Below are positions 6,652 to 37,445 of a stretch of DNA of 64,000 bases, piece after piece; position 1 is the stretch's first letter, and each line of letters starts with the position of its first letter. The stretch lies in contig JAGABZ010000013.1 of assembly GCA_017614375.1 (NCBI GenBank), positions 12,414 through 76,413 on the forward strand, read 5' to 3'. The translations under genes and the position numbers were made by a program. The notes below the pieces were generated by a model. That model had not been told where the DNA came from. It ran no database searches and saw only the letters and a program-made list of their open reading frames with translations. This stretch comes from Spirochaetales bacterium. Lineage in GTDB: Bacteria > Spirochaetota > Spirochaetia > Sphaerochaetales > Sphaerochaetaceae.

Positions 6652-6722
6652 ACTGATTCGCTTGACGCAAGGCACAAAACGGACAATGCTCTGAAGTGTA
6701 TTACCGCCTTTGGGAGGTGCTT

Positions 6723-8075
6723 ATGTTCACAAAACCGGAACTGCCGGAGGATTTTCTCTTCGGAACGGCGACGGCCAGCTATCAGGTGGAGGGAGCCGGT
6801 TCGGAAGACGGACGGACCCCCTGCATCTGGGATGATTTCGCCAGGATTCCCGGAGCCGTCTATAAACAGCAGGACGGAAGCGTGGCAGCCGACCAGTACC
6901 ACCGTTTCAGGGAGGATGTCGGGCTGATGGCCGACCTGGGATTCAAGGCCTACCGCTTCTCGGTATCCTGGTCCAGAGTTCTTCCGCATGGCGGAACCCG
7001 GGTCAACCCCAAGGGCATAGCCTATTACCGCAACCTCTGCGAGGAACTCCACCGGCACGGAATGAAGGCCTGCTGCACGATTTACCACTGGGACCTTCCC
7101 AGCGAGATCAGCGCCGCCGGAGGCTGGGCAAACCGTGAGACAGCCTTCTGTTACGCCGCTTACGCAAAAGTCCTGTTCGAGCAGCTCGGCGACCTGGTGG
7201 ACATGTGGATCACAATCAACGAGGCACGCTGCCTGACTTTTCTGGGGTACTTCCTGGGAATCCACGCCCCGGGGGTTAAAGACCTCCGGAAATACATAAA
7301 CAGTATCCACCACATCAACCTGGCCCACGGACTGGCGCTGAAAGAATACCGAAGGACCGGGCTCAAGGCCCCTATCGGGATCACCCACAATCTGGAGGTC
7401 CCGCGTCCCGCGACGGCCGACCCGAAGGACAGGATTTCCGTATCGCGCCACATCGACCTGGCCAGCGGAGTATTCATGCAGCCCATGTTCAGGAAGTCGT
7501 ACCCGGACTACACCACCCGTACCCTGGGCTGGAAGTTCCCTGTGGAACCGGGCGATATGGACCTGATCTCCCTTCCCGTTGATTTCATCGGGGTGAACTA
7601 CTACAGCGAGGCGGCGCTCCGCTGGTCCGACACCGCTCCGGACAACATCGCCCCGGCCCCGCGGTGGGAGGAACACACCTCCGGCATCAACTGGCCAATC
7701 ACCCCGCACGGGCTTCTGCGTCTGCTCAGGTGGACCGCTGAATACACTGATTACAAGGTCCCCATCTTCATAACCGAGAACGGTGCCGCCTGCGACGACA
7801 GGCCTGTCACCGACCCGCAGACCGGCCAATTCCGTGTCCACGACCCTCAGCGCGTCCGCTACCTCTCCGAGCACCTGAACATATGCGCCGAGGCCCTGAA
7901 GGAGGGCATCCCGCTCAAGGGTTACTTCTGCTGGAGTTTCATCGACAACTACGAGTGGACCTACGGCTACAGCATGCGGTTCGGAATCGTCTATTGCGAC
8001 TATGAAACCCAGAGGCGCATCCCCAAGGACAGCGCGTACTTCCTCAGGGACGTGATGGCCGGCTACGGCGACTGA
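6723..8075 (+). CDS. GH1 beta-glucosidase
   Basis: Classic GH1 motifs: 'FLFGTATASYQVEG', acid/base 'TINEARC' (NEP-like), nucleophile 'ITENGAA'; RBS GGGAGGTG before ATG 6723. Confidence 0.9.
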   Translation: MFTKPELPEDFLFGTATASYQVEGAGSEDGRTPCIWDDFARIPGAVYKQQDGSVAADQYHRFREDVGLMADLGFKAYRFSVSWSRVLPHGGTRVNPKGIAYYRNLCEELHRHGMKACCTIYHWDLPSEISAAGGWANRETAFCYAAYAKVLFEQLGDLVDMWITINEARCLTFLGYFLGIHAPGVKDLRKYINSIHHINLAHGLALKEYRRTGLKAPIGITHNLEVPRPATADPKDRISVSRHIDLASGVFMQPMFRKSYPDYTTRTLGWKFPVEPGDMDLISLPVDFIGVNYYSEAALRWSDTAPDNIAPAPRWEEHTSGINWPITPHGLLRLLRWTAEYTDYKVPIFITENGAACDDRPVTDPQTGQFRVHDPQRVRYLSEHLNICAEALKEGIPLKGYFCWSFIDNYEWTYGYSMRFGIVYCDYETQRRIPKDSAYFLRDVMAGYGD

Positions 8076-8142
8076 CTGATCTTACCGCTCAGTGCCGCCG
8101 GAGCCCGGAAACAGCTGGCAAAAACCCTCCTGAGGCAGGACT

Positions 8143-8270
8143 GAGTGTCCGAAAAACGGCTTGTGGCAGATTGTTTCGGATACCCTAGTGTCCGAAAAAC
8201 GACTTGAGACAGGTACTTTCGGATACCTGAGTGTCCGAAAAACGGCTTGAGACTGATTGTTTCGGATACT
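8143..8270. repeat. Three tandem ~44 bp units each containing an imperfect inverted repeat GT(G/A)TCCGAAA...TTTCGGATAC
   Basis: Read directly: 'gagtgtccgaaaaacggcttgtggcagattgtttcggatac' x3 with few substitutions, in convergent intergenic gap. Confidence 0.8.
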
Positions 8271-8272
8271 GC

Positions 8273-8800
8273 TCAGAATGTCAGTTTTGCCGCCAGCGAG
8301 AGACCGGAAGACCCATCTCCGGCGACAGTCGGAGTCATGGCAAACTGAACAGAACTGACCCCTAAGGCTTGTGATAGTTGCCTGTTGTACTCGTTGGTAT
8401 AGCTGATTGGCCTGAATATTTCGTAAAGGCGAAAAGCCAGTAACCCGATGATCCCCATGAGAGCGGTATCCGGGTTCCCGTTGGCGGCTCCCAAGATATA
8501 CACACTGACAGAAGACAACTCTCCCGCCAGCCCGATTAGACCGCCTTCGTTATCCCCCTCTGCAAAAGAACCAATTCCGCACCCCAGGAAAAAGTTCAGT
8601 AACAGCGGAACAGCGAGACCTTTCTGTTGGTTGTTGTAGTACATGATTTTTTGGGTGGTATCCATTCCGGCTACCGCACTTTTAAAGCCGATTATTTCGT
8701 TTTGGTCTTTCGGGCTGAGTTTGACCGCGAATGCTGTACCAGGCACAAGCAACAGGACCAAAAGAGTGGCTGTCAGTATTTTCTTCATAATCCCTCCCAT
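8273..8800 (-). CDS. hypothetical secreted/membrane protein
   Basis: Signal peptide 'MKKILTATLLVLLLVPGTAFA' followed by Gly-rich hydrophobic segments; lower GC than flanks. Confidence 0.5.
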   Translation of the reverse strand: MGGIMKKILTATLLVLLLVPGTAFAVKLSPKDQNEIIGFKSAVAGMDTTQKIMYYNNQQKGLAVPLLLNFFLGCGIGSFAEGDNEGGLIGLAGELSSVSVYILGAANGNPDTALMGIIGLLAFRLYEIFRPISYTNEYNRQLSQALGVSSVQFAMTPTVAGDGSSGLSLAAKLTF

Positions 8801-8866
8801 TCTCAGATCCTTTCTTACAAAGGACTCTGAACAGTGTAGTTTCGCGCAACATCAAAAAGGTCGCCT

Positions 8867-9601
8867 GTGAGGCGAGTTTTGGAATATAATTACTGCATGA
8901 CCAAGGAAGAATTCGCGCAGACAATAGAGCGGTTTCTGAATGACCGGCCAGGCAGGATTATTACCAGAAGGGTTGGATTCGGCCCCTTCAAAAGGAAGAT
9001 CCAGAAACGATTCTTCCTGTCCGACCTGACCCTAATCGGTTATCAGAGTTTCATTGAGAAAAACTATCAGGGCTTCGAAAAGCCCGAAGGCGTCCGCGGA
9101 GGGATTCCGACAGGCGGGCCCACCATTCTTCATCAAGCTATTGCTTCCGAAGATGACGAAAGCGCCACTCTGTATTCTCTTTCGGATAGCAAGAATCTGC
9201 ACAGCAGTATTGAAATACCGGAGGAAATTCGGAAAATCTTGACCCAGAGAGTGACTGGCGAAACCTTTTCCGACATGTTGATAAGACTCCAAAATGAACG
9301 AAGTATCAAAGCGCCTGACCTGTACCGGAGTGCAAGGATTGACTACAGGCATTTCTCAAAAATCATTTCGGACAGGCAGTATCGCCCCCGGAAAGATACG
9401 GTATTTGCCCTGGGGTTGGCACTGAGACTCGACATCGACACCGCTGAGAAGTTCCTTGCCAGAGCCGGGTATTCTTTCAATCCGTCAAGTCTGGCCGACA
9501 TGACCATCCGGTTCTTTTTCGAGATACACAAATATGACAGGAACGCCATTGATACTTTGATGGAGGCCATGGGCTTACCATTACTCCCTCAGAACTGGTA
9601 G
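8867..9601 (+). CDS. hypothetical protein with XRE-like helix-turn-helix segment
   Basis: Central 'ETFSDMLIRLQNERSIKAPDLYRSARIDYRHFSKII' resembles XRE-family HTH; no other recognisable domain; true start may be Met at 8897. Confidence 0.4.
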   Translation: MRRVLEYNYCMTKEEFAQTIERFLNDRPGRIITRRVGFGPFKRKIQKRFFLSDLTLIGYQSFIEKNYQGFEKPEGVRGGIPTGGPTILHQAIASEDDESATLYSLSDSKNLHSSIEIPEEIRKILTQRVTGETFSDMLIRLQNERSIKAPDLYRSARIDYRHFSKIISDRQYRPRKDTVFALGLALRLDIDTAEKFLARAGYSFNPSSLADMTIRFFFEIHKYDRNAIDTLMEAMGLPLLPQNW

Positions 9602-9706
9602 CAGCTGCCTCTACGAAGGTTGACACCGGTCAATCCGCCGTTTATTATTCAGATGCAAAAGCGGCCACCCGAAGCGGTTGTCCTGCCTTTTGCCGTTGGT
9701 TTTCGA

Positions 9707-9752
9707 AACCGCCGGTACTGGTCAAGTTAGCGGCGGTTTTCTTTTTTCTTTC
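9707..9752 (+). terminator. rho-independent terminator-like hairpin
   Basis: 'aaccgccg'-16 nt loop-'cggcggtt' followed by ttcttttttctttcg. Confidence 0.5.
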
Positions 9753-9828
9753 GAATCCAAATCATCAGCACAAGCCGGACAATCTCATTAATATTTGTAT
9801 AGTAATCTCTGCCTGATATCGCTCCCTC

Positions 9829-10326
9829 TTACCGCTTGCGGAAGAGGACGAACTTTTCCAGGGGGAACAGGGTCAGGGTGTAGACAGCGCCGGCGAACAA
9901 CACCGCCAAAGTCGGGGCGAGCTTGATCAGAAAGGCGCTGCCTGAGTTGATGAAGAAGTTGTTGAGCACACCCTGAACCCAGGTGACCACGAAAATCAGG
10001 ATTACAAGGACGACAAGGTAGACTACAAAGCACCACTTCGGGGCCTCGACCTTGAACGTGGTTTTCTTGTTCTGGATGTACTGATAGGTGTTGGCAACCA
10101 GATTCGAGGTGAAAAAAGGCACAACGTAGCCCCAGTTGCTGTTGCCGCTGCCCATCGTGGTCTCGCTGAATATACCGCTCAGAACCGCCGGAAGCGGGGC
10201 AGTCCAACCGCGCATCAGATAGTATAGGACGTTGACGACAACCAGCTGGATAACGCAGCCGATGCCGCCGACCAGCAGGAACTTTACAAACTGCCAGCCC
10301 GTCCTGTTTTCCTTTGTCTCAGACAT
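9829..10326 (-). CDS. GtrA family membrane protein
   Basis: 'FVKFLLVGGIGCVIQLVVVNVLYY' GtrA-type N-terminus, 4 predicted TM helices. Confidence 0.55.
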   Translation of the reverse strand: MSETKENRTGWQFVKFLLVGGIGCVIQLVVVNVLYYLMRGWTAPLPAVLSGIFSETTMGSGNSNWGYVVPFFTSNLVANTYQYIQNKKTTFKVEAPKWCFVVYLVVLVILIFVVTWVQGVLNNFFINSGSAFLIKLAPTLAVLFAGAVYTLTLFPLEKFVLFRKR

Positions 10327-26780: not shown

Positions 26781-27662
26781 TCAGAACTCCAGCCCGAACG
26801 CCACGCCGCCGGAGAAGCACACCCCGGTCGTAAGAATATGGAAAGTCCCCCGGCCCTCCAGCCTGAGGGAAGAAGTCGGGCGGAAACCCATCATCACACC
26901 CAGCGTCAGACCGAACCCGAAGCGCCTGTTGCCTGAAGTTAAGTCCATAGCCGCCTCCAGCCCCGCCACGGCCCCGACCGAAAGCTTTTCGGTCAGGGGG
27001 TACTCTGCCAGGGCATATCCGGTGATTCCGACCGACTCGAGCTCAAACGGCCCGTACGGATGAATCACCGCGTACAGCTCAGTTCCGGCATCCAGCACCA
27101 TTCCCAGGGCAAGTTCCGACAGATCCCCGAATTCAAGGTTCAGCCCGGTTCGGATTGCTTTCTTCGTCGTCTTGGCGACGGCGCTCTGAATTTCGGCAAA
27201 GGCCCCGATTTCAATCGGCCCACGGGTCCTTGCCGGCTCTTCAGGTTCGAGCTGAACCTCAAATTCGAGGGCGGCGTCAGACTCCGCCTCCGGGGTTTCG
27301 GTGCCGGACTCCTGTGTCTGAATTGCGGCATCGGATTCATCAAAGGACAATCCCTGACCGGGCAGTATCTCCGACTCCTCGGCAGGATAGTATGTAAGTT
27401 CCGCCGTCTCGCTCCAAATCTGTCCGTCGTAGGTCTGCTGTATATACAGCGTGTGCGGCACGCTCAGATCAAGGTCATAAAATGTGGCCGAGGTGAGGTA
27501 ATAATCCTGCCACGTCCACTCTCCCTCCGTGCTGTCCAGCTGGTAGCGGTATCCGGTCACGCTGAAGTCGTTCCAGTCCCAGACGAAGGTCAGACCCTCG
27601 CCGGTGGCCCAGATCGCGGCACAGACCGCAAACGCCAGAATCAGACAGAGTGCGCGTTTCAT
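26781..27662 (-). CDS. putative outer-membrane beta-barrel protein
   Basis: Signal peptide, alternating-hydrophobic C-terminal half ending in '...GLEF'; paralog of next gene. Confidence 0.5.
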   Translation of the reverse strand: MKRALCLILAFAVCAAIWATGEGLTFVWDWNDFSVTGYRYQLDSTEGEWTWQDYYLTSATFYDLDLSVPHTLYIQQTYDGQIWSETAELTYYPAEESEILPGQGLSFDESDAAIQTQESGTETPEAESDAALEFEVQLEPEEPARTRGPIEIGAFAEIQSAVAKTTKKAIRTGLNLEFGDLSELALGMVLDAGTELYAVIHPYGPFELESVGITGYALAEYPLTEKLSVGAVAGLEAAMDLTSGNRRFGFGLTLGVMMGFRPTSSLRLEGRGTFHILTTGVCFSGGVAFGLEF

Positions 27663-27664
27663 GA

Positions 27665-28474
27665 TCAGAGCGCCTTCGTCTTTATCGGGAGGATGTAGTT
27701 GATCTTGGCTCCGATGCTGAAGTCATTGTTGGCATAGAGCCTCAGTCCGGCCTCACCGACGAAACTGAACGTCAGGGCATCGTGGGTCAGGACGTTCATG
27801 TCGACCATCCCGCCGATTCCCGCCGCGAATCCGATCAGGCCCAGCTTGTAGGCGACTTCACCTCCGAACTTGAAACCGAGGGTCATGGGCTTGTCCCAGA
27901 ACAACCCGAGAACGAATCCGGCTCCGACCTTTGAATTACCGGAGAAGTAATCACGGGCATAGGAAATGGACAGGGCCTTTGACAGGCCGCTCTGAGTCTG
28001 GTACAGAGCCCCGGCAAAGTCAAAACTGGTAATGCCGTATGTGCCTTTCTTCTCTGCCGGTGCCTCTGCCTCAACCTCGGCAACAGCTTCAGTGGTCGCA
28101 ACCTCCGGCTCGGGGGACGGCTCGCTTACAGCCACCGCGGCGGCATAGAAGGCCTCGGCGGAAACGCTCCAGATTGTTCCGTCATAGGAGGCCTGAACAT
28201 ATACGGTGTGGTCGGCGTTCTCGTCGACGGTAATCAGGATTCCCGGAACGGAGCTGTCACACGCAATCCACAGGCCGTCCTCCTGTCCGTCAACCTGATA
28301 GCGCAGGTACTGGGGGACGTTCTCGACTCCGGTCCAGTCGAAGGAAACGAAGATGTCGGCGGCGAATACCATCGCCGAAGCGGCAATCAGAACCAACAAA
28401 AAGGCTGCTGTTCTCTTATTCATCATTCTCTCCTGTCCGGACATCCGCGGATGCCGGCTGTTTGAATATAGCAC
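27665..28474 (-). CDS. putative outer-membrane protein (paralog of 26781..27662)
   Basis: Signal peptide; shared N-terminal W-x-W containing domain ('FDWTGVENVPQYLRYQVDG' vs 'WDWNDFSVTGYRYQLDS'). Confidence 0.5.
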   Translation of the reverse strand: MLYSNSRHPRMSGQERMMNKRTAAFLLVLIAASAMVFAADIFVSFDWTGVENVPQYLRYQVDGQEDGLWIACDSSVPGILITVDENADHTVYVQASYDGTIWSVSAEAFYAAAVAVSEPSPEPEVATTEAVAEVEAEAPAEKKGTYGITSFDFAGALYQTQSGLSKALSISYARDYFSGNSKVGAGFVLGLFWDKPMTLGFKFGGEVAYKLGLIGFAAGIGGMVDMNVLTHDALTFSFVGEAGLRLYANNDFSIGAKINYILPIKTKAL

Positions 28475-30434: not shown

Positions 30435-31139
30435 CTATTTGCGCTTGGTGACCTTGCAGAGCCGGTTGCGCTCGGCCAGGACGACGAGGATCCTGTTGCA
30501 GAAATCGGCCGTAACCTCTTCGTTCTCGACAACGGCGCTCTGCAGGTCCGCCACCATGGATTCCAGGGTTTTCTCGACATCGGCTGTGGCGTCCGAACTG
30601 ACCGGGTCGCTGTATCTGAACTCCTCCGACACCCGCCGCAACAGCTCGTTCGTCTCCGGATCCTTGGCAAATCCCACCAGGGAATTGACCTTTGAGCGCA
30701 ACCCGATGATGCACTGGGTCTGGCTGGACAGGATGTCGTCCTGCCGCTCAATCTCGGACCTGACGATATCGACAGTGATGAATCCGATGGCGCAGAGGCA
30801 CAGCAGTACTGCAAAGACCGCCAGCGGAATCCACAGCGGCACCGTTTGGGGCAGGAGCATCGTGACGATGCTCAGCACAACCTGCGCAATCAGATAGACG
30901 GTTCCGAGTTTCGCGACTGGAATCCCGTAGAACCGGCTGCGCGGCGCCCCCTCCCTGCCGAAGGCGTTGAGTATGGCCAGCAGATGCAGCACCAGCGCGG
31001 CGACGGCAAACACGTAGGCCAGCCAGAAGTTCGCGCCCCGGCTGAACGGCAGCACGAGGACGATTACGGAAAACACAATCGCCGCCAGAATATAGGCGAT
31101 GACGATCTTTACCAGAACACTCTTTTTCTTTTCAGTCAT
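30435..31139 (-). CDS. hypothetical membrane protein (4 TM + helical cytoplasmic tail)
   Basis: Four hydrophobic helices then charged alpha-helical C-terminus; last gene of the TIR/SPFH cluster. Confidence 0.5.
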   Translation of the reverse strand: MTEKKKSVLVKIVIAYILAAIVFSVIVLVLPFSRGANFWLAYVFAVAALVLHLLAILNAFGREGAPRSRFYGIPVAKLGTVYLIAQVVLSIVTMLLPQTVPLWIPLAVFAVLLCLCAIGFITVDIVRSEIERQDDILSSQTQCIIGLRSKVNSLVGFAKDPETNELLRRVSEEFRYSDPVSSDATADVEKTLESMVADLQSAVVENEEVTADFCNRILVVLAERNRLCKVTKRK

Positions 31140-31168
31140 GGTTCACTCCGTTTGTGCCGCTTCGGCCG

Positions 31169-32863
31169 TCACTCCGCGTCGGGTCTCCTGGCGCCGCAGT
31201 CGGGACAATGCTTTGATGTCAGTCCCCTGGCTCCGCAGGCACAGTCCCATGTGCCTGCCGGCTCGGGCCGGGCGGCTCCGCAATCCGGGCAGAATTTACT
31301 TGTCAGCCCCCTCCGGCCGCAGGAACAGCTCCATGTGTTTCCGGCCGGCTTGTTCTTTGCCGGGCTCATGGCTCTGTCAAGTACAGGTTCAAGAACTTCC
31401 CTGGTAGTCTGGGCTACGGTACTCGCCACACCCAGACCGAATCCGGCTTCGATGACCTTTTCGGCAATGCTGCTGCCGCCGCCGCTCGAGCCGCCGCCTC
31501 CGTTGGCTTTCTTCATCATTTCGGTTGCCACGATACGACCCGTCTCATCCTGATAGGTGTAACCTCCCATGATCCTTCCCTCGGCTTCGGCATAATGATG
31601 GAGCAGTTCCGACGTCGCCTCACCCTGGGATTTGATAACGCTGGCATCCCTGTCCCCTGTGGCCTCAATGATTTTGGTTTCCTTATTGATTTCCGCCACT
31701 TTCTTATCCGTATCCGCCTCTACGGTCTTTAAGAATCTGCTTGCAAACAAATTCTTGGCAGCCTTGAAGTTGGGATCATCATCGGGAAGCATGACATTCT
31801 GGACGATGAACTCGGGGATGGAAAGCCCGTACTCCGCGAACTTCGCATTCAGCTTTTCCCTCAGAGCTTCGGACAACTCCATCAGATAGCGGTCAATCGC
31901 CATTACGGGGATCTTGTTATCCGTTATCGTCTGGGCCAGGCTGGACTTTACCTGGGCGCGGACCAGGGAGCCGAAATACGACCTGCCTTCTTCGCCTGTG
32001 ATATCGCCCCGGCCGAAGGTTCTGCCGGTCCCGACAACCTTGGTCAGCAGTTTCCGGGAGTTGCTCACGCAGACTTTGAACTCGCCCCGGGCGCCGATTT
32101 CAAAATACATTCCCGTGTCCGGGTCGAACAGTCTGACTCTGGAGTCGGTTCCCCACTTGACCCCTTCGATGACCGACAGATTGACGAAGTACACTTCCGA
32201 ATGGAAAACCCCGGTCGGTTCGGTGGGGAAGTCCAGGGCCTTGCCCAAAAGCGGGAGCTTCTGCGTTTCCAGGGTGTACCGCCCCGGTCCGAAGGTGTCC
32301 AGGGCCTGTCCGTCACGGAAAAAGACCGCCTCCTGGGACTCATGGACAATCAGCTGCGAGCCGTAGTTGAAGTCCTCGATCGGGTGCTTCCAGACTATGG
32401 AGCCGATGTCGCCCTCGTACTTGATCAGATTCGGCACGCCGCTCTTTTTGATTTCATCCTGGACGACCTTTGCCTGGACGTTTTCCATCACATGGGAGCA
32501 GACCGGGCAGGTGAAGGACTGTGCGCCCTTGTCCACCAGGAACCGGATTCCGCACTGGTCACATGCAATCTCGACGTTTTTGATCTTGTCTTCGGTCCTG
32601 TTGATCGGATGCTTGCACAGCGGGCAGAGGGCGGCGTCCCCCTTGGTGCGGTCGTAGACGACGATGTTCCCGCAGTGCGGGCACTCCTGGGAAACGAGTT
32701 TTGACTGTCTGATGTCAATCTTGTTTCCGCAGGCGCATTCGACAATCTTCTTTGCGAAGATGCCTCTTCTGGCCTGGACATAACTGCCGCACTCCGGGCA
32801 GCTGATCATGAAAATCTTATCGTTCTTTTCCATCGCGGACACCTCCCCGTCACTCGACTTCAA
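31169..32863 (-). CDS. SPFH/band-7 (Band_7_1-type) domain protein with multiple N- and C-terminal zinc-ribbon motifs
   Basis: Five or more CxxC..CxxC pairs ('CPECG..CACG', 'CPHCG..CPLC', 'CDQCG..CPVC', C-terminal 'CSCG..CPDCG' x2), central SPFH-like core, Gly/Ser linker. Confidence 0.75.
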   Translation of the reverse strand: MKSSDGEVSAMEKNDKIFMISCPECGSYVQARRGIFAKKIVECACGNKIDIRQSKLVSQECPHCGNIVVYDRTKGDAALCPLCKHPINRTEDKIKNVEIACDQCGIRFLVDKGAQSFTCPVCSHVMENVQAKVVQDEIKKSGVPNLIKYEGDIGSIVWKHPIEDFNYGSQLIVHESQEAVFFRDGQALDTFGPGRYTLETQKLPLLGKALDFPTEPTGVFHSEVYFVNLSVIEGVKWGTDSRVRLFDPDTGMYFEIGARGEFKVCVSNSRKLLTKVVGTGRTFGRGDITGEEGRSYFGSLVRAQVKSSLAQTITDNKIPVMAIDRYLMELSEALREKLNAKFAEYGLSIPEFIVQNVMLPDDDPNFKAAKNLFASRFLKTVEADTDKKVAEINKETKIIEATGDRDASVIKSQGEATSELLHHYAEAEGRIMGGYTYQDETGRIVATEMMKKANGGGGSSGGGSSIAEKVIEAGFGLGVASTVAQTTREVLEPVLDRAMSPAKNKPAGNTWSCSCGRRGLTSKFCPDCGAARPEPAGTWDCACGARGLTSKHCPDCGARRPDAE

Positions 32864-33035
32864 CGTTCTTCAAGGCAAACTCAAGCAGGATCTGGACGAT
32901 CTCATTGCGGGTCCTGGCGGAATCATTGGCAATGCGATCGATTTCCTCAAGCATATCCTTGGGGAGTCTGCTTGTGATAACCACCGATTCATCACGGTAC
33001 TTTTTGGATTCGATTTTAAGCTTCACATCTTCCAT
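32850..33035 (-). CDS. ribbon-helix-helix (CopG/Arc-like) DNA-binding protein
   Basis: 61 aa; 'VVITSRLPKDMLEEIDRIA' beta-strand + helix pattern; stop overlaps SPFH start by 14 nt; AGGAG RBS. Confidence 0.6.
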   Translation of the reverse strand: MEDVKLKIESKKYRDESVVITSRLPKDMLEEIDRIANDSARTRNEIVQILLEFALKNVEVE

Positions 33036-33060
33036 AAACTGCTCCTGGCTTACATTGGCA

Positions 33061-33112
33061 ATCTATTTGTAACACAATTGTAATCTATTTGCAAGCACTT
33101 TGTGCTTTTTTA
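33061..33112 (-). promoter_or_regulatory. promoter/operator region of RHH gene with direct repeats and hairpin
   Basis: 'atctatttg' x2 (22-bp period), 'ttgtaa' x2 (11-bp period), hairpin 'agcactttgtgct'+T6; TTGCAA-17-TACAAA promoter-like on minus strand. Confidence 0.35.
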
Positions 33113-33113
33113 A

Positions 33114-35876
33114 TCAGTCCGGGTTCTGCTCCTCTTCTTTCCGGCGGGCCAGCCTGTCGGAAAGAACCGTGGACATCCCCTCAACTCCCTCAAATGCCTG
33201 AAGGGAGGCATAGTGCCCGGCCTGTTGCCAGAGCTGATGAATCTCCTCGTCAATCTTGTCCCTCCTGTCAAAAAGTCGCTTCAATTCGTCTTCCTTGCCG
33301 GCAAGTTCCTTGTCCGCAGCTTCAAAGTTTTCCCTGCACTTTCTAATCGGTCCGCCCAGACAGAGGGAAAGAAGGACTATAACCGGAGGCCCGCAAATCA
33401 AAGTGTCCATCAGGTGGAAATTCTTTGTGTTTTCATTCAACCCTCCGACAAAGAGCAGTACAAGTGCAACCGGGGCAAAAACCCACAGAAACGGGCGTTC
33501 CTTTTTTATGCCGACAATCACGCCGGCAATCATCACTGCGAGCCAGAAGAGGTAGAAAGGTCCGTCATCGAACACCGCCTCGTGGGACGCGTACGAGCCG
33601 AACCACAGCCACAGCAACGGAGGTATTGCAAGCAACACCCCGATCAGAGTCAAAACGAACTGCTTTCTGTTCCTGGTCTTTGCCAAAGCCTCCCGTTGTT
33701 TGCCGTACCCCGCAAACGGATGCATGCTGATCTGTTTCCGGATGGGAACCTTCTCCATGGCCTTTGCGCAGATTTCCACCCATAAATGACTGCCGTTGTA
33801 GTCTTTCAGTTCCTGGAAAATCTCAGAGGCAGCCTGATACTCAGTGTCGTCATACTTCTTTCTGGCCTCCTGAAACCTCTGCTCAAGCTTTGCCTTCTGA
33901 CAGTTTTCTATCCAGCGGTCCGAACCCTTGTATTGCTCTTTTTGCAGTTGTCTGAAGATTACCAGAGCCCGGTCAAAGTCTCCGTTGTCGTACAGGCCTT
34001 TCGCCTCTTTGAATTTCTCCTCAAGCATCCTGTCGCGGTCGGCCTCAATATCGCCGCGGACCGCTTCAAGCTCGGAGCGCACCCGGTCAAACTCCTCCGA
34101 TGCGTCCTTGTAATCGGTAACCATCCCGAAGAGAAAGACTGCCACTGCGAGGCTTGCTTCCTTCGCCTTCGGATCAGATTGACTCAAGGCATTATCCCTG
34201 CTCTCCGATGCGGCGTTGTATATTGCTTCGCAGCAGTTCTCTTGCAGGGCATCGTTTCCGAAGCGCTTTGTACATGCCGAAACGAATTTCTCCGCACTGC
34301 GCATCTGTGGCTTCAAGTCCTCAAGGAAGTCGGATTCGGGATTATCGACCGCTCTCTTCAGAAGCCTTGAATAACAGAACTCCGCGTATTGATTTGCCAG
34401 GCGTTCGGAATCGGCATTGACAGTCTCCAGGAGTTCTGCTCTCTCGTCCAGTTTTTCCGGCAGTTGCTCAATCTTCGCGATAACCTCGTCAAAATCAGCC
34501 ATGAACTCATCAAAAGTCACGGCAAACAACGGCTGGTCCTTCGTAATCCGCGCACCGGAGCGTTTGACAGCCTGCTCGTGAAGACTCATGCACTGGGCAC
34601 AGTGCCTGCTCAAAACCCGCTTCAGAACCGACCGGAGGTAGCCGGTAATCTCTTCTTTGAGTTCGGGCGAAGCGTAGCGCTGGATTTTCTTCAGATACTT
34701 GTTGTTGTCAAAGGCCGCAGAGGAATCGAGATTTCCGAGGTCCTCCCGGTGGTGCAGCCCGAGGGAGGCCAGCCACTGTCCGAGATAGGCTTCGGCGTTT
34801 TCAGGATCCATGTCCAGAATCCGGTCGCTGTATTCGACGGCCTTGTCGAACTCCCCGTCTTCGAGGAACTGGAACATCCTCTTGTGCAAGCCTGCGATTT
34901 CCGGCCTCATGAATGAGGAGCCGGCCCGGGCGGGTTCCTCTCTTTTGCCGCCGGCGCCGCGGACGATTGTCTTCACCCCGTACACCAGATTCTGCAGGTA
35001 CCCCAGGGCGGACATATCAACTGCCTGGAGCTTGAGGCCGCTCGGAGACTCCTGAAGCTCCCTGGGTATATCCATCAGGTCGATGTCCGCGTACGCCGTC
35101 ATCAGGACCTTTGACGGGTCATCAGCCATCAGACGCTTGAACCGGGACCACTCGTTCTTGACCCAGGGGGCGTTGAAATACACCTGCTCGGTCCCCACCA
35201 CTATCATCACCTTTGCTGTCTGCAGAGCGCCGAAAATGTAGGGCTCATACTCAATCCCGGGCTTGTTCTTCAGCGTCACCTTGGAAAAGAAGACTCTCAG
35301 TCCTTCCTTTTCAAGGGCATTGTAGATATCGAAGGCATAAACGCTGTCCTTCGTCTTGGCTTTTGTCTTGTCATCGGTTTCCTTGTAGCAGATGAAGACA
35401 TCATAAGGTTCGGTATTCCGGGAAACCATGAGGATGTTTTTCTGCATCTCGTCAATCCGGGCCGCTTCTTCCTCGTAGAACTCCCGCTGCCGGGCATCTG
35501 CGTATTCCAGGGCCGAGAGGTAATCCTCATCCTCGAGTATCGAGGACTGCTGTGTTCTGTGGACAGTAGGAACAAGGCGCTTTGTCTCGCGGTTTTCCAC
35601 ATACTCTATGCCGTATCTGCAGAGCACTATGGACCAGTAGCTTTCGGCGTCGGTGCTGTCCTCCGCAAGTACCTGCTCGTACAGGCTCATGGCACGGTCG
35701 AAATCATTGTTCCGCCGGAAGTGGTCCGCCCGTTTGTAGAGGTTCTGTTTCTTGTCCGAATCCAGTCTGGGTACGGTCTGTTCAGTACCGCAGTACGGAC
35801 ACTTCGCCACAAGAGAGCCTTCCTCAACCAGAAGATTCGCTCCACAATTCTTACACATCCGGCTGTTCGTCAACAT
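33114..35876 (-). CDS. TIR-domain protein with N-terminal zinc ribbon, TPR-like helical repeats, four TM helices and C-terminal coiled coil
   Basis: 'CKNCG...CPYCG' ribbon; TIR core 'YDVFICYKETDDKTK...DIYNALEKEGLRVFF...VMIVVGTEQ...WVKNEWSRF'; hydrophobic helices near residues 730-830; lower GC than flanks. Confidence 0.8.
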   Translation of the reverse strand: MLTNSRMCKNCGANLLVEEGSLVAKCPYCGTEQTVPRLDSDKKQNLYKRADHFRRNNDFDRAMSLYEQVLAEDSTDAESYWSIVLCRYGIEYVENRETKRLVPTVHRTQQSSILEDEDYLSALEYADARQREFYEEEAARIDEMQKNILMVSRNTEPYDVFICYKETDDKTKAKTKDSVYAFDIYNALEKEGLRVFFSKVTLKNKPGIEYEPYIFGALQTAKVMIVVGTEQVYFNAPWVKNEWSRFKRLMADDPSKVLMTAYADIDLMDIPRELQESPSGLKLQAVDMSALGYLQNLVYGVKTIVRGAGGKREEPARAGSSFMRPEIAGLHKRMFQFLEDGEFDKAVEYSDRILDMDPENAEAYLGQWLASLGLHHREDLGNLDSSAAFDNNKYLKKIQRYASPELKEEITGYLRSVLKRVLSRHCAQCMSLHEQAVKRSGARITKDQPLFAVTFDEFMADFDEVIAKIEQLPEKLDERAELLETVNADSERLANQYAEFCYSRLLKRAVDNPESDFLEDLKPQMRSAEKFVSACTKRFGNDALQENCCEAIYNAASESRDNALSQSDPKAKEASLAVAVFLFGMVTDYKDASEEFDRVRSELEAVRGDIEADRDRMLEEKFKEAKGLYDNGDFDRALVIFRQLQKEQYKGSDRWIENCQKAKLEQRFQEARKKYDDTEYQAASEIFQELKDYNGSHLWVEICAKAMEKVPIRKQISMHPFAGYGKQREALAKTRNRKQFVLTLIGVLLAIPPLLWLWFGSYASHEAVFDDGPFYLFWLAVMIAGVIVGIKKERPFLWVFAPVALVLLFVGGLNENTKNFHLMDTLICGPPVIVLLSLCLGGPIRKCRENFEAADKELAGKEDELKRLFDRRDKIDEEIHQLWQQAGHYASLQAFEGVEGMSTVLSDRLARRKEEEQNPD

Positions 35877-35933
35877 CAATGCCCCTTCCGGAACCGAAGA
35901 CCGCCCGGGTTCCGGCAGCTCTCCAGCCTCGCA

Positions 35934-35977
35934 GATTACATTTGCAACTTAAATGTAATCGCTTTGTAATCAGAGCG
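35934..35977 (-). promoter_or_regulatory. palindromic operator-like element upstream of TIR gene
   Basis: Perfect inverted repeat 'attacattt-gcaactt-aaatgtaat' plus 'cgct-ttgtaatcag-agcg'; TGTAATC motifs shared with RHH upstream region. Confidence 0.3.
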
Positions 35978-36040
35978 CAAGCCCCTTTTTCAAGGGGAAT
36001 CTGATTTCACGTATGTGATGATGCTCTGTGAGGCCGGGAC

Positions 36041-36562
36041 TCAGGTGGTCTCGAACTGGATGTAAATTGTGGCGGTGTACTCTTCGTCCTCATCCTCGCC
36101 GAAACCCTCGGGCCGGCCGAAGGGGAAGCAGACGTAGATTCCACCGAGAAGGGCGTTGGGAGAATCGCTGATCAGATTCAGTATGTTCAGGCCCGAGGTC
36201 TGCTGGATTCCTGAAACGAGTCCTTCGTGGTTGTAGGAAATAATCGCAATCTCAAAGGGATAGACAGCATCCGAATTCTTCGCCCGCAGCAGGAAAACCG
36301 CGTCTCCGTTTCCGGGGACAATCGAAAGCTTCGCCGAAGAATTTGTGCTGTTTTCGGAGAGGTTGAAAGTCGCAAGGGCGAACTGTTTGCCTTCTACGTT
36401 CTTGAGAGCCAACCCGCTCTGGTCGGACTCTACGACGGAGAAGTCCATCTTGGCGTTGACCCTTCCGGAAACCGAGATTTCAACGGTGTTGGAGGTCAGA
36501 TCATCAGCGTACAGTGACAGCGCCGAAACCAGGACCAGAATCATCACCAGGAGCTTCTTCAT
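36041..36562 (-). CDS. hypothetical secreted protein
   Basis: Signal peptide 'MKKLLVMILVLVSALSLYA'; no recognisable domain; lower GC. Confidence 0.5.
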   Translation of the reverse strand: MKKLLVMILVLVSALSLYADDLTSNTVEISVSGRVNAKMDFSVVESDQSGLALKNVEGKQFALATFNLSENSTNSSAKLSIVPGNGDAVFLLRAKNSDAVYPFEIAIISYNHEGLVSGIQQTSGLNILNLISDSPNALLGGIYVCFPFGRPEGFGEDEDEEYTATIYIQFETT

Positions 36563-36750
36563 AACAGACACATCCTCTTCCAATGCCGATTCTAGAGGAA
36601 CTTCAAACTTCTGTCAATAGTTTGAATTGCCCGTTGTTTTTTTCGGCCGGTTTTTGACCCCAAAACCATCTAAATGCCTCTGTTTGCGAAATTTGCGCTT
36701 ATGTCATAATTGCCTCTGCCCACCCCGCTTCCTCCTATCTTCCCGCTTCC

Positions 36751-36779
36751 TTGTAAAACCCCCGGCTTTGCGCTATATT
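36751..36779 (+). promoter_or_regulatory. sigma-70-like promoter for tRNA-Arg
   Basis: TTGTAA-17 nt-TATATT ending 9 nt before tRNA 5' end. Confidence 0.45.
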
Positions 36780-36788
36780 CTTCCTTGC

Positions 36789-36862
36789 GGGTGCGTAGCG
36801 AAGTTGGATATCGCGTGTCCCTCCGGAGGATAAGGTCGTGGGTTCGAATCCCGCCGCACTCA
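36789..36862 (+). tRNA. tRNA-Arg (anticodon CCG)
   Basis: Hand-folded cloverleaf: acceptor gggtgcg/cgcactc, D-arm gcga/tcgc, anticodon stem tgtcc/ggata with loop 'ctCCGga', T-arm gtggg-ttcgaat-cccgc, discriminator A; CCA not encoded. Confidence 0.85.
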
Positions 36863-36864
36863 AG

Positions 36865-36905
36865 AACAGGCTAGCTGCCTCGTGCAGCGGGCCTGTTTTT
36901 ATTTG
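36865..36905 (+). terminator. rho-independent terminator after tRNA-Arg
   Basis: 7-bp stem aacaggc/gcctgtt with inner gctgc/gcagc helix, followed by tttttattt. Confidence 0.55.
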
Positions 36906-36926
36906 TCGGAACGCCAGGGATTCGAA

Positions 36927-37445
36927 GCGAGACGGGAGAATCCCACCGGCACCTGAATCGCAGCAGGCATTGACCCAAATGGTGTTTTTTTTTCAAATCG
37001 CACGAAAAACCACCTCGAAAATGGTGGTTTTTTTTCAAATCTTGAGGAAAACCACCACGAAATTGGTGGTTTTTTTGAAAACTCGGGAAAAACCACCAAT
37101 GAGTAATAGGGAAGAGACCAATCGGCAACGGGGATGGGTCAGGCCTTGCCCGGAATTGTAGAGATAGTCCAGCTTTTTCGGGGAAGGCCGGACCGGCTTC
37201 AGCAGAGATGATTAGACTCAGCGAGACGGGAGAATCCCGCCGACCACTGAATCGCAGCAGGCATTAACTCAAGTGGTGGTTTTTGTCAAATCGCACGAAA
37301 ATCCACCTCGGAAATGGTGGATTTTTTCAAATCGTGAGGAAAACCACCACGAAATTGGTGGATTTTTTGAAAACTCGGGAAAAACCACCAAAGAGCAACA
37401 GGGAGGAGACTGATCGGCAACGGGGATGGGTCAGCCGGGATATTA
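36927..37445. repeat. Two ~220 bp direct repeats (~90% identical, 78 bp apart), each starting with tRNA-3'-end-like sequence and containing three hairpin + T-tract sub-repeats
   Basis: Copy 1 36927-37142, copy 2 37221-37445; sub-repeat 'caaatc..gaaaaaccacc-N7-ggtggttttttt' x3 per copy; both end 'ggcaacggggatgggtcag'. Confidence 0.85.

Follow-up and report, generated by a model that had tools for sequence, protein, structure and literature searches.

Here we report that four co-directional genes in a 64,000-nucleotide stretch of DNA from a Spirochaetales bacterium (NCBI GenBank assembly GCA_017614375.1, contig JAGABZ010000013.1, positions 12,414 to 76,413 of the forward strand; this whole stretch is referred to as the window, and coordinates are those of the window unless given for another locus) belong to a gene combination that, judged from sequence comparison, forms a real functional unit, one that hundreds of species have in common. 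The genes encode a membrane protein with a TIR domain, an RHH protein, an SPFH (band-7) protein and a small partner protein with four transmembrane (TM) segments. We tentatively favour the reading that this module is a conserved and apparently undescribed membrane-associated TIR conflict system, probably directed against phages; its defence function is something that we infer and not a result of the analysis. TIR domains are shared by the immune systems of bacteria, plants and animals, and bacterial TIR domains serve as NAD+-consuming effectors in several antiphage systems. SPFH/band-7 proteins scaffold membrane complexes. To our knowledge, the known bacterial TIR systems are cytosolic sensors or effectors.

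Conservation of the gene combination

The open reading frame (ORF) listing places the four genes on the minus strand, as an earlier reading of the letters without database searches (the sequence-only reading) had described. The features of the locus are as follows:

30435-31139, minus strand: gene of the 4-TM membrane partner, 234 aa; no family match in Pfam or NCBIfam
31169-32863 (longest ORF), minus strand: SPFH gene, 564 aa; Band_7_1
32850-33035, minus strand: RHH gene, 61 aa; RHH_1
33052-33107, minus strand: candidate control region between the TIR and RHH genes; hairpin and tandem repeats
33114-35879, minus strand: membrane TIR gene, 921 aa; TIR_2
35934-35971, minus strand: candidate operator 5' of the TIR gene; inverted repeat and motif copy
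36041-36583, minus strand: secreted-protein gene, 180 aa; signal peptide (hydropathy scan); no family match
36789-36862, plus strand: tRNA-Arg(CCG), found with Rfam, the sole hit passing in 28-40 kb

The domain calls of the sequence-only reading (TIR, RHH and SPFH with zinc ribbons) were likewise recovered by Pfam, which identified TIR_2, RHH_1, Band_7_1, zinc ribbons and TPRs. A contig from another metagenome (L001 in our numbering of loci) carries the same genes in the same place, with a TIR protein 95% identical to that of the window, and no within-species variation was seen. The gaps of 78, -14 and 29 nt given earlier hold for the longest ORFs, but the -14 overlap is probably a gap of 16 nt after the RHH gene: the true SPFH start is probably the ATG at 32833, since M11 is invariant in the SPFH alignment and the protein of the 95% relative was called at 554 aa.

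To define the neighbourhood of the module, one genome per species (GTDB) was scanned with the SPFH alignment only. Of the 578 relatives confirmed in this way, the 80 best loci were retained. Six-frame ORFs of these 80 loci were then searched with the window proteins, using a threshold of E<1e-30 for TIR-module genes. A homologue of the 4-TM partner lies directly downstream of the SPFH gene in 59 of the 70 loci with enough downstream sequence. Among the 32 loci with 4 kb on both sides, 30 carry co-directional TIR-module genes within 6 kb, between one and five in each locus. RHH homologues were found in 15 of these 32 loci and in 29 of the 80 overall, and in 28 of the 29 its gene lies no more than 124 nt upstream of an SPFH or TIR gene. 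Other gene families are each found in at most 8 of the 80 loci. In the reverse test, all five TIR homologues that were looked up adjoin a Band_7_1 gene and a gene for a protein of ~230 aa. The check on co-localisation that had been proposed with the sequence-only reading therefore came out in favour of the cluster, as homologues of its genes do lie together elsewhere.

The components are not equally constant. Because more distant SPFH genes keep the 4-TM partner even without a nearby TIR gene, for example on a Butyrivibrio fibrisolvens plasmid and on viral contigs (L167-L170), the pair of SPFH and 4-TM genes is the core of the module, which TIR genes join in a large clade.

Two further kinds of gene were seen in the related loci. 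Arrays in L013, L028, L064, L080, L016 and L020 include zinc-ribbon/TPR proteins that end in RCC1 or DUF6273 tails and have no TIR domain, and small zinc-ribbon membrane proteins of ~170 aa are encoded in L072, L077, L081, L082 and L002 (10867-11382 of that locus). The N-terminal zinc ribbon may be a common docking element.

Predicted proteins of the module

The TIR protein consists, in order, of an N-terminal zinc ribbon, a TPR/beta-hairpin module, the TIR domain (TIR_2, E 5e-11, residues 161-267; Pfam), TPR-like repeats, four TM segments (residues 741-845; hydropathy scan) and a charged, cytosolic coiled-coil tail. In an alignment of 43 sequences, E243 of the WxxxE motif (W239-E243) is invariant and W239 nearly so; many positions of the N-terminal module are invariant too, including C12, C27 and C30 of the zinc ribbon, where C9 is nearly so. 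The segment NAPWVKNEWSRF aligns with the motif SKWCLMELAEI of flax L6, in which lies the glutamate that is catalytic in plant TIR domains, and this match, though weak (E 0.11), is consistent with the Pfam TIR hit. An AlphaFold model of residues 1-420 (predicted local distance difference test, pLDDT, 84.4) matches the TIR domains of Roq1, RPP1, SARM1, AbTir and MAL as well as TPR superhelices, with Foldseek TM-scores (template modelling, target-normalised) of 0.65-0.71 against the TIR domains of SARM1, AbTir and MAL. Both points on which the sequence-only reading had wanted the TIR domain checked are thus answered: the model matches known TIR domains, including NADase TIRs, and the catalytic glutamate is present and invariant as E243, aligning with the glutamate of the plant TIR motif SxWCxxEL. 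Together, these features show a TIR fold and the WxxxE motif known from NADase TIRs of bacteria; NAD+ cleavage is predicted for this protein.

More than 7900 homologues of the TIR protein were found. They have the first ~415 residues in common, at ~50% identity, and their C-termini are very unlike each other, carrying DUF6273, LRR, RCC1 or RHS domains. Of the 88 complete TIR-module proteins, 37 have no TM segment, 35 have a single one with a tail behind it (median length, 356 aa) and 16 have two to four; the four-TM form in the window is a minority type.

The SPFH protein contains a Band_7_1 domain (E 6e-41, residues 163-362; Pfam) and has no TM segment by hydropathy. Three N-terminal zinc ribbons, formed by six CxxC-type pairs when CACG is counted, precede this domain. 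After it come a coiled coil and a Gly-rich segment, and the C-terminus has two more zinc ribbons, with CxxC pairs at residues 525 and 553. Cysteines and SPFH residues are invariant in the alignment. Homologues number more than 7700, the best being ~50% identical over 97% of the length.

The 4-TM partner, an almost invariant companion of the SPFH protein, has four TM helices (hydropathy), the fourth of which is prolonged as a long helix into a cytosolic helical bundle, and is marked by the conserved motifs RSKFYGFP, FRYSDPVS and LAERNRLCK. A profile of this protein collected 3966 cluster representatives at E<=1e-3, almost all of ~230 aa, and no Pfam domain was found in these family representatives. 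Pfam detected neither a TPM nor an NfeD domain in the partner, and no NfeD among the neighbours. A fold search with the partner returned generic helical bundles only and gave no functional lead. Searches of the five proteins encoded at 30435-36583 against NCBIfam gave nothing significant.

Candidate regulatory sites

The RHH protein (RHH_1, 22.4 bits vs a cut-off of 20.5, E 1e-4; Pfam) is of CopG type and is presumed from its sequence to be a transcriptional regulator. Its gene is the first of an RHH-SPFH-membrane operon. The RHH protein is 49% identical to that of a Clostridia locus, in which the membrane partner is 26% identical to that of the window (E 5e-24).

The 78-nt gap between the TIR and RHH genes contains a terminator-like hairpin after the TIR stop codon (33093-33107) and then two tandem 22-nt repeats, each of which holds the sequence TTRCAAANNGATTRC (33058-33072 and 33080-33094). 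The region 5' of the TIR gene has a 10-nt inverted repeat, GATTACATTT / AAATGTAATC, and a third copy of TTRCAAANNGATTRC (35955-35969). Even with one mismatch allowed, the 64 kb contain exactly three copies of this 15-nt motif, where 0.12 would be expected, a generous statistic as the motif was defined post hoc. All three copies are on the coding strand and are confined to two promoter regions, and L001 has copies at the same places. The simplest reading is that the TTRCAAANNGATTRC sites form a shared RHH operator, each region being a candidate promoter with its operator. GATTACA alone was considered as an operator and rejected: its 15 copies exceed the 3.0 expected from shuffles, and the excess is spread across the whole window.

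Signs of a conflict system

Several properties of the related loci are suggestive of a conflict system. The TIR genes form paralogue arrays with swapped C-terminal domains, some copies of the module sit in mobile contexts, and the module is found in more than one phylum. A SIR2_2 gene of ~300 aa is inserted in the operon, between the TIR gene and the SPFH or 4-TM gene, in 7 of the 80 loci (~9%; L031, L042, L057, L063, L068, L072 and L081) and in addition in L174. The copy in L072 matches the SIR2 part of the PADLOC model of ThsA (E 7e-16; profile positions 18-169 of 478) as well as LmuA (E 1.5e-9), and no SLOG domain was found in this protein. Furthermore, a toxin-type insertion was observed in a Lachnospiraceae locus, where a HipA_C kinase gene stands between the 4-TM partner and the TIR gene (L175, 9068-9970). 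About 12 of 150 flanking genes match strong defence models (among them AriA, AbiLi, LeoA/BC, MADS and DRT) and the rest are heterogeneous, an observation that is only suggestive as it has no control set.

The sequence-only reading knew of no described system that joins TIR, RHH and SPFH proteins, and PADLOC and the searched literature bear this out: the full-text search found no account joining SPFH proteins with TIR, Thoeris or anti-phage defence.

Proposed mechanism

On the basis of these comparisons we propose the following sequence of events. The RHH protein would repress both promoters through the shared TTRCAAANNGATTRC sites. The 4-TM partner would anchor the soluble, YdjI-like SPFH protein at the inner face of the membrane and so give rise to an oligomeric platform, an arrangement suggested by analogy with YdjI, which needs membrane proteins for its localisation. 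The conserved N-terminal zinc-ribbon/TPR module would dock TIR proteins on the SPFH platform, and the variable C-termini would act as sensors, which in relatives may be extracellular DUF6273/lectin-like, LRR, RCC1 or RHS domains. A trigger at the envelope could then cluster the TIR domains and induce cleavage of NAD+ at the WxxxE site, and the loss of NAD+ would halt growth of the infected cell. The spirochaete itself would owe the module to a Clostridia-type donor, through a transfer old enough for the composition of the genes to have been largely ameliorated since.

A more specific and more doubtful version of this scheme is that of an immune receptor complex, in which the SPFH platform and 4-TM anchor organise TIR proteins with a transmembrane layout in the style of Toll-like receptors. 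The interchangeable ectodomains of these proteins would recognise phage at the cell surface, either ahead of the entry of its genome or while this takes place, and would set off NAD+ cleavage in the cell. Were this version true, prokaryotes would have in the module an equivalent of those immune receptors that plants and animals organise in nanodomains.

If the module is immune, it would add a large family to bacterial immunity, with thousands of cluster representatives and common in gut and rumen Clostridia. It would also give SPFH/band-7 proteins a role in bacterial immunity, introduce a receptor-like topology (outside sensor, TM segment, inside TIR), assign a function to a large unannotated 4-TM family and place in a genetic context the many genes of gut Clostridia that are annotated as 'TIR domain-containing protein'. 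Carriers of the module are in culture, such as Ruminococcus sp. FC2018 (L037, NZ_JHXH01000003.1) and Pseudoflavonifractor capillosus An827 (L067, NZ_JACJJE010000007.1); bacterium 1xD42-67 is a further candidate.

A number of observations weigh against a membrane-associated immune function. The SPFH and 4-TM pair has a function of its own, not necessarily an immune one, because such pairs exist without a TIR gene (pNP21, the B. fibrisolvens plasmid, and L167-L170). Membrane sensing is not universal, given the 37 of 88 TIR-module proteins that have no TM segment, and the TIR protein of the window is itself without an ectodomain, its C-terminus being the four-TM bundle and coiled coil. No fusion of a TIR domain with SPFH or 4-TM proteins was present among the best 120 matches of either family, and no PADLOC model, ThsB included, was reached by any of the five window proteins (E<=0.1 for the TIR protein). 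In addition, the neighbourhood survey had no control set, and the TTRCAAANNGATTRC motif was derived from the same sequences in which it was counted.

Alternative explanations

An alternative that we consider unlikely is a Thoeris-like division of labour, in which the TIR paralogues would act as sensors and turn NAD+ into a nucleotide signal, and the SPFH and 4-TM proteins (with SIR2 where present) would form an effector that damages or seals the membrane. The passage of PMC13069673 that cites Ofir 2021 describes multiple ThsB genes beside one ThsA in Thoeris, and the module resembles this in having one constant pair with 1-5 variable, divergent TIR genes, TIR domains with a catalytic glutamate and, in ~9% of loci, a SIR2 gene resembling part of ThsA; moreover, the Gly-rich, GxxxG-like segment of the SPFH protein could enter the membrane. 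However, no SLOG, Macro, CARF, SAVED or other known signal-binding domain was found in the SPFH, 4-TM or SIR2 proteins, the ThsB models of PADLOC were unmatched, and SPFH and 4-TM pairs occur without a nearby TIR gene. The module also differs from Thoeris in that its constant partner is an SPFH and 4-TM pair rather than a SLOG or Macro effector, and in that its TIR proteins are large, carry zinc-ribbon/TPR modules and are often transmembrane.

Quite unlikely, in our judgement, is an envelope-stress or membrane-maintenance function of the YdjI type, an option that the sequence-only reading had itself named, with SPFH and anchor organising or repairing the membrane and the TIR/TPR proteins as scaffolded, non-immune clients. 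YdjI of Bacillus subtilis is soluble and combines Band_7_1 with a low-complexity segment and, at the C-terminus, a zinc finger; its membrane localisation depends on membrane proteins (PMC8581546, PMC11237479). The SPFH protein of the module shares this family and architecture (soluble Band_7_1, low-complexity segment, C-terminal zinc ribbon, no TM segment), its gene lies beside a membrane-protein gene as in the PspA-YdjGHI system, and the SPFH and 4-TM pair occurs without a TIR gene. What speaks against such a function is the absence of the remainder of that system: PspA was not recurrent among neighbours, and a phmmer search with E. coli PspA (E<=1), which is limited for distant relatives, found none, either in the window or in the 91 related loci searched (L001-L083 plus the viral loci L165-L172). 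The 4-TM partner lacks a TPM domain, and an NTF2 protein like YdjG is absent. The SPFH protein has extra N-terminal zinc ribbons, and its genes are linked to TIR genes instead. Furthermore, an invariant WxxxE motif, SIR2 insertions, mobile contexts and paralogue arrays would be unexpected for housekeeping stress genes, and the distribution is patchy and across phyla. The idea of a defence cluster put forward in the sequence-only reading, for which consistent linkage of the SPFH homologues to pspA would have been damaging, is not refuted on this point. We regard as improbable a role in surface recognition or adhesion, in which ectodomains bind ligands of a host or neighbouring cell and the TIR/TPR and SPFH components serve signalling or anchoring rather than immunity. 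Such a role could be read from the 35 of 88 TIR-module proteins that are single-pass with long post-TM tails (median 356 aa) bearing binding-type domains, and from DUF6273, a lectin-like receptor-binding fold that is diversified by diversity-generating retroelements (DGRs) in phages (PMC10743442); yet the window protein and 37 of the 88 relatives have no ectodomain and retain the invariant catalytic motif, and the operons are interspersed with conflict genes, those for SIR2 and HipA-type proteins among them.

Relation to other systems

The proposed TIR conflict module shares elements with several further systems. As in SPFH-NfeD pairs and the HflK/C-FtsH cage, an SPFH protein is accompanied by a dedicated small membrane partner and presumably forms an oligomeric, client-holding platform; unlike them, the partner has no NfeD match, no protease is encoded and the SPFH protein has no membrane anchor of its own. 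The TIR fold and WxxxE motif are those of TIR NADases such as AbTir, TIR-STING, SPARTA TIR-APAZ, SARM1 and plant TIR-NLRs, with which the module presumably has activation by induced oligomerisation in common, whereas its partner domains and membrane/SPFH context are different and it contains no NTPase, Argonaute or STING module. In 2022 Rousset et al. reportedly described a 2TM-1TM-TIR system from E. coli P2/P4 hotspots, in which a TIR protein is said to occur with small membrane proteins. The reported system is like the module in this pairing, and differs from it in having no SPFH protein and another TIR architecture. Finally, conflict sensors with DGR-diversified lectin folds (PMC10907252, PMC7159879) resemble the module in combining conserved signalling parts with hypervariable sensor parts, many paralogues in relatives ending in DUF6273. 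In contrast to those sensors, no reverse transcriptase was among the recurrent neighbours, the window protein has no DUF6273, and the core is SPFH/TIR rather than a STAND NTPase.

Origin and mobile contexts

According to the labels of their records, ~75 of the 80 loci are from Bacillota, mostly Lachnospiraceae, Oscillospiraceae and Ruminococcus, and no spirochaete was among the best 80 SPFH loci. Three loci (L020, L045 and L053) come from metagenome-assembled genomes labelled Chloroflexi, Bacteroidales and Kiritimatiellaeota; either the module has moved between phyla in these cases as well, or the contigs were wrongly binned. Outside the species, the closest relatives are ~50-55% identical. 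Because the relatives are nearly all Bacillota with no spirochaete among them, and in view of this level of identity and of a dip in GC content (G+C fraction) at the locus, a cross-phylum transfer from a Clostridia-type donor into Spirochaetales is likely. The acquisition is not recent, since the composition is largely ameliorated. The host assignment agrees with exact matches of window proteins, which belong to a metagenome-assembled genome at NCBI labelled Spirochaetales bacterium (MBO4388706-17); the TIR protein of the window has no exact match on record. The sequence-only reading had taken the locus for horizontally acquired cargo; transfer is indeed plausible for a Spirochaetales host whose relatives at this locus are mostly Clostridia, but the island borders it had drawn are unsupported, as detailed below.

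Relatives of the module are found in mobile contexts. L174 (1-17500) encodes Band_7_1, a 232-aa partner, SIR2_2 and TIR-RCC1 proteins within an integrative conjugative element, which also encodes MobL, a TraG-type coupling protein, a resolvase and three large serine recombinases; L002 holds Mob_Pre, and resolvases or integrases were observed in several other loci. The 20.5-kb plasmid pNP21 of Butyrivibrio fibrisolvens D1, a cultured rumen isolate (NZ_CP146965.1, L164), carries an SPFH gene and a frameshifted 4-TM gene without a TIR gene (6700-8649), and the neighbours of this SPFH gene are a restriction-modification S-subunit, a recombinase and a YoeB/RelB toxin-antitoxin pair. A phage database gave no relevant match to the module. 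It is not mainly phage-borne, because IMG/VR gave only 8 loci.

Composition and borders of the locus

The GC content of 30435-37445 is 0.541 vs 0.583 for the whole window, a dip of ~4 points; among stretches of 7 kb it is the lowest in the window (rank 2 of 570 positions). The lower-GC islet of the sequence-only reading is therefore real and deviates from the background, though modestly and far less than its hand counts of 40-55% had implied; likewise the flanking genes, put there at ~62-63%, have computed values of 0.598-0.599. GC values of the genes are 0.589, 0.571, 0.537 and 0.530. At third codon positions (GC3), the 4-TM gene is host-like at 0.80, and values are 0.73 for the SPFH, 0.68 for the TIR and 0.69 for the 180-aa gene; typical window genes have a GC3 of ~0.74-0.83.

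A tRNA-Arg is present as described earlier, but neither an att repeat, an integrase nor an empty site was found, and because of this the locus is no demonstrable tRNA-bounded island. The 3' end of the tRNA-Arg is not repeated anywhere in the 64-kb window with up to 3 mismatches allowed, and no integrase was seen among the ORFs of 27-41 kb (the Pfam scan covered the five cluster proteins and a few flanking ORFs). An empty-site search comparing the flanking NTP-transferase with metagenome contigs reached closest relatives of 56-60% identity with no shared synteny, which are too distant, and the 95% relative L001 carries the module at the same site.

The repeats that had been taken as att-like consist of two blocks, each of 2.9 copies of a 41-42-nt hairpin unit (36977-37098 and 37274-37390), nested in a ~293-bp duplication (36926-37142 and 37220-37434) between the tRNA-Arg and an acetyltransferase gene. 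The unit has the form AAAACCACC-loop-GGTGGTTTT, the folded RNA has a z-score of -3.1, and L001 has the same nested arrangement. A tRNA-derived att or island-border reading was rejected, the repeats being tandem hairpin units and the tRNA 3' end being unrepeated. Two sub-threshold matches of Rfam P9 to the hairpin repeats, from the scan of 28-40 kb, were also rejected. Candidate readings of the duplicated hairpin array are an array of terminators, a small RNA and a repeat element.

At the other end of the locus, the 4-TM gene ends (30435) 18 nt from the start of a host NTP-transferase gene on the same strand (30416). The module may read through into host genes, and this left border is invisible in composition, the 4-TM gene being host-like in GC3.

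Neighbouring genes

The sequence-only reading had also placed a secreted protein in the islet. A signal-peptide protein of 180 aa is present, but it is no part of the module: its homologues are from the same species only, and with a sole homologue of this kind it was rejected as a module member. Its gene has its own strong promoter-like site, TTGACA-17-TAGAAT at 36617-36589, and is ended by a terminator-like hairpin (35982-35997) upstream of the TIR gene.

Elsewhere in the window, a second low-GC stretch (8001-10000; 0.485-0.505) contains the gene of a Borrelia_P13 family protein (8273-8800, E 8e-14), which fits a Spirochaetales host, and a 244-aa ORF without a family (8867-9601). At 26781-28474, two adjacent genes encode signal-peptide proteins of 293 and 269 aa with alike N-terminal motifs (FVWDW/FDWTG ... 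YRYQLD/LRYQVD) and no Pfam family, which may be spirochaete-specific surface proteins.

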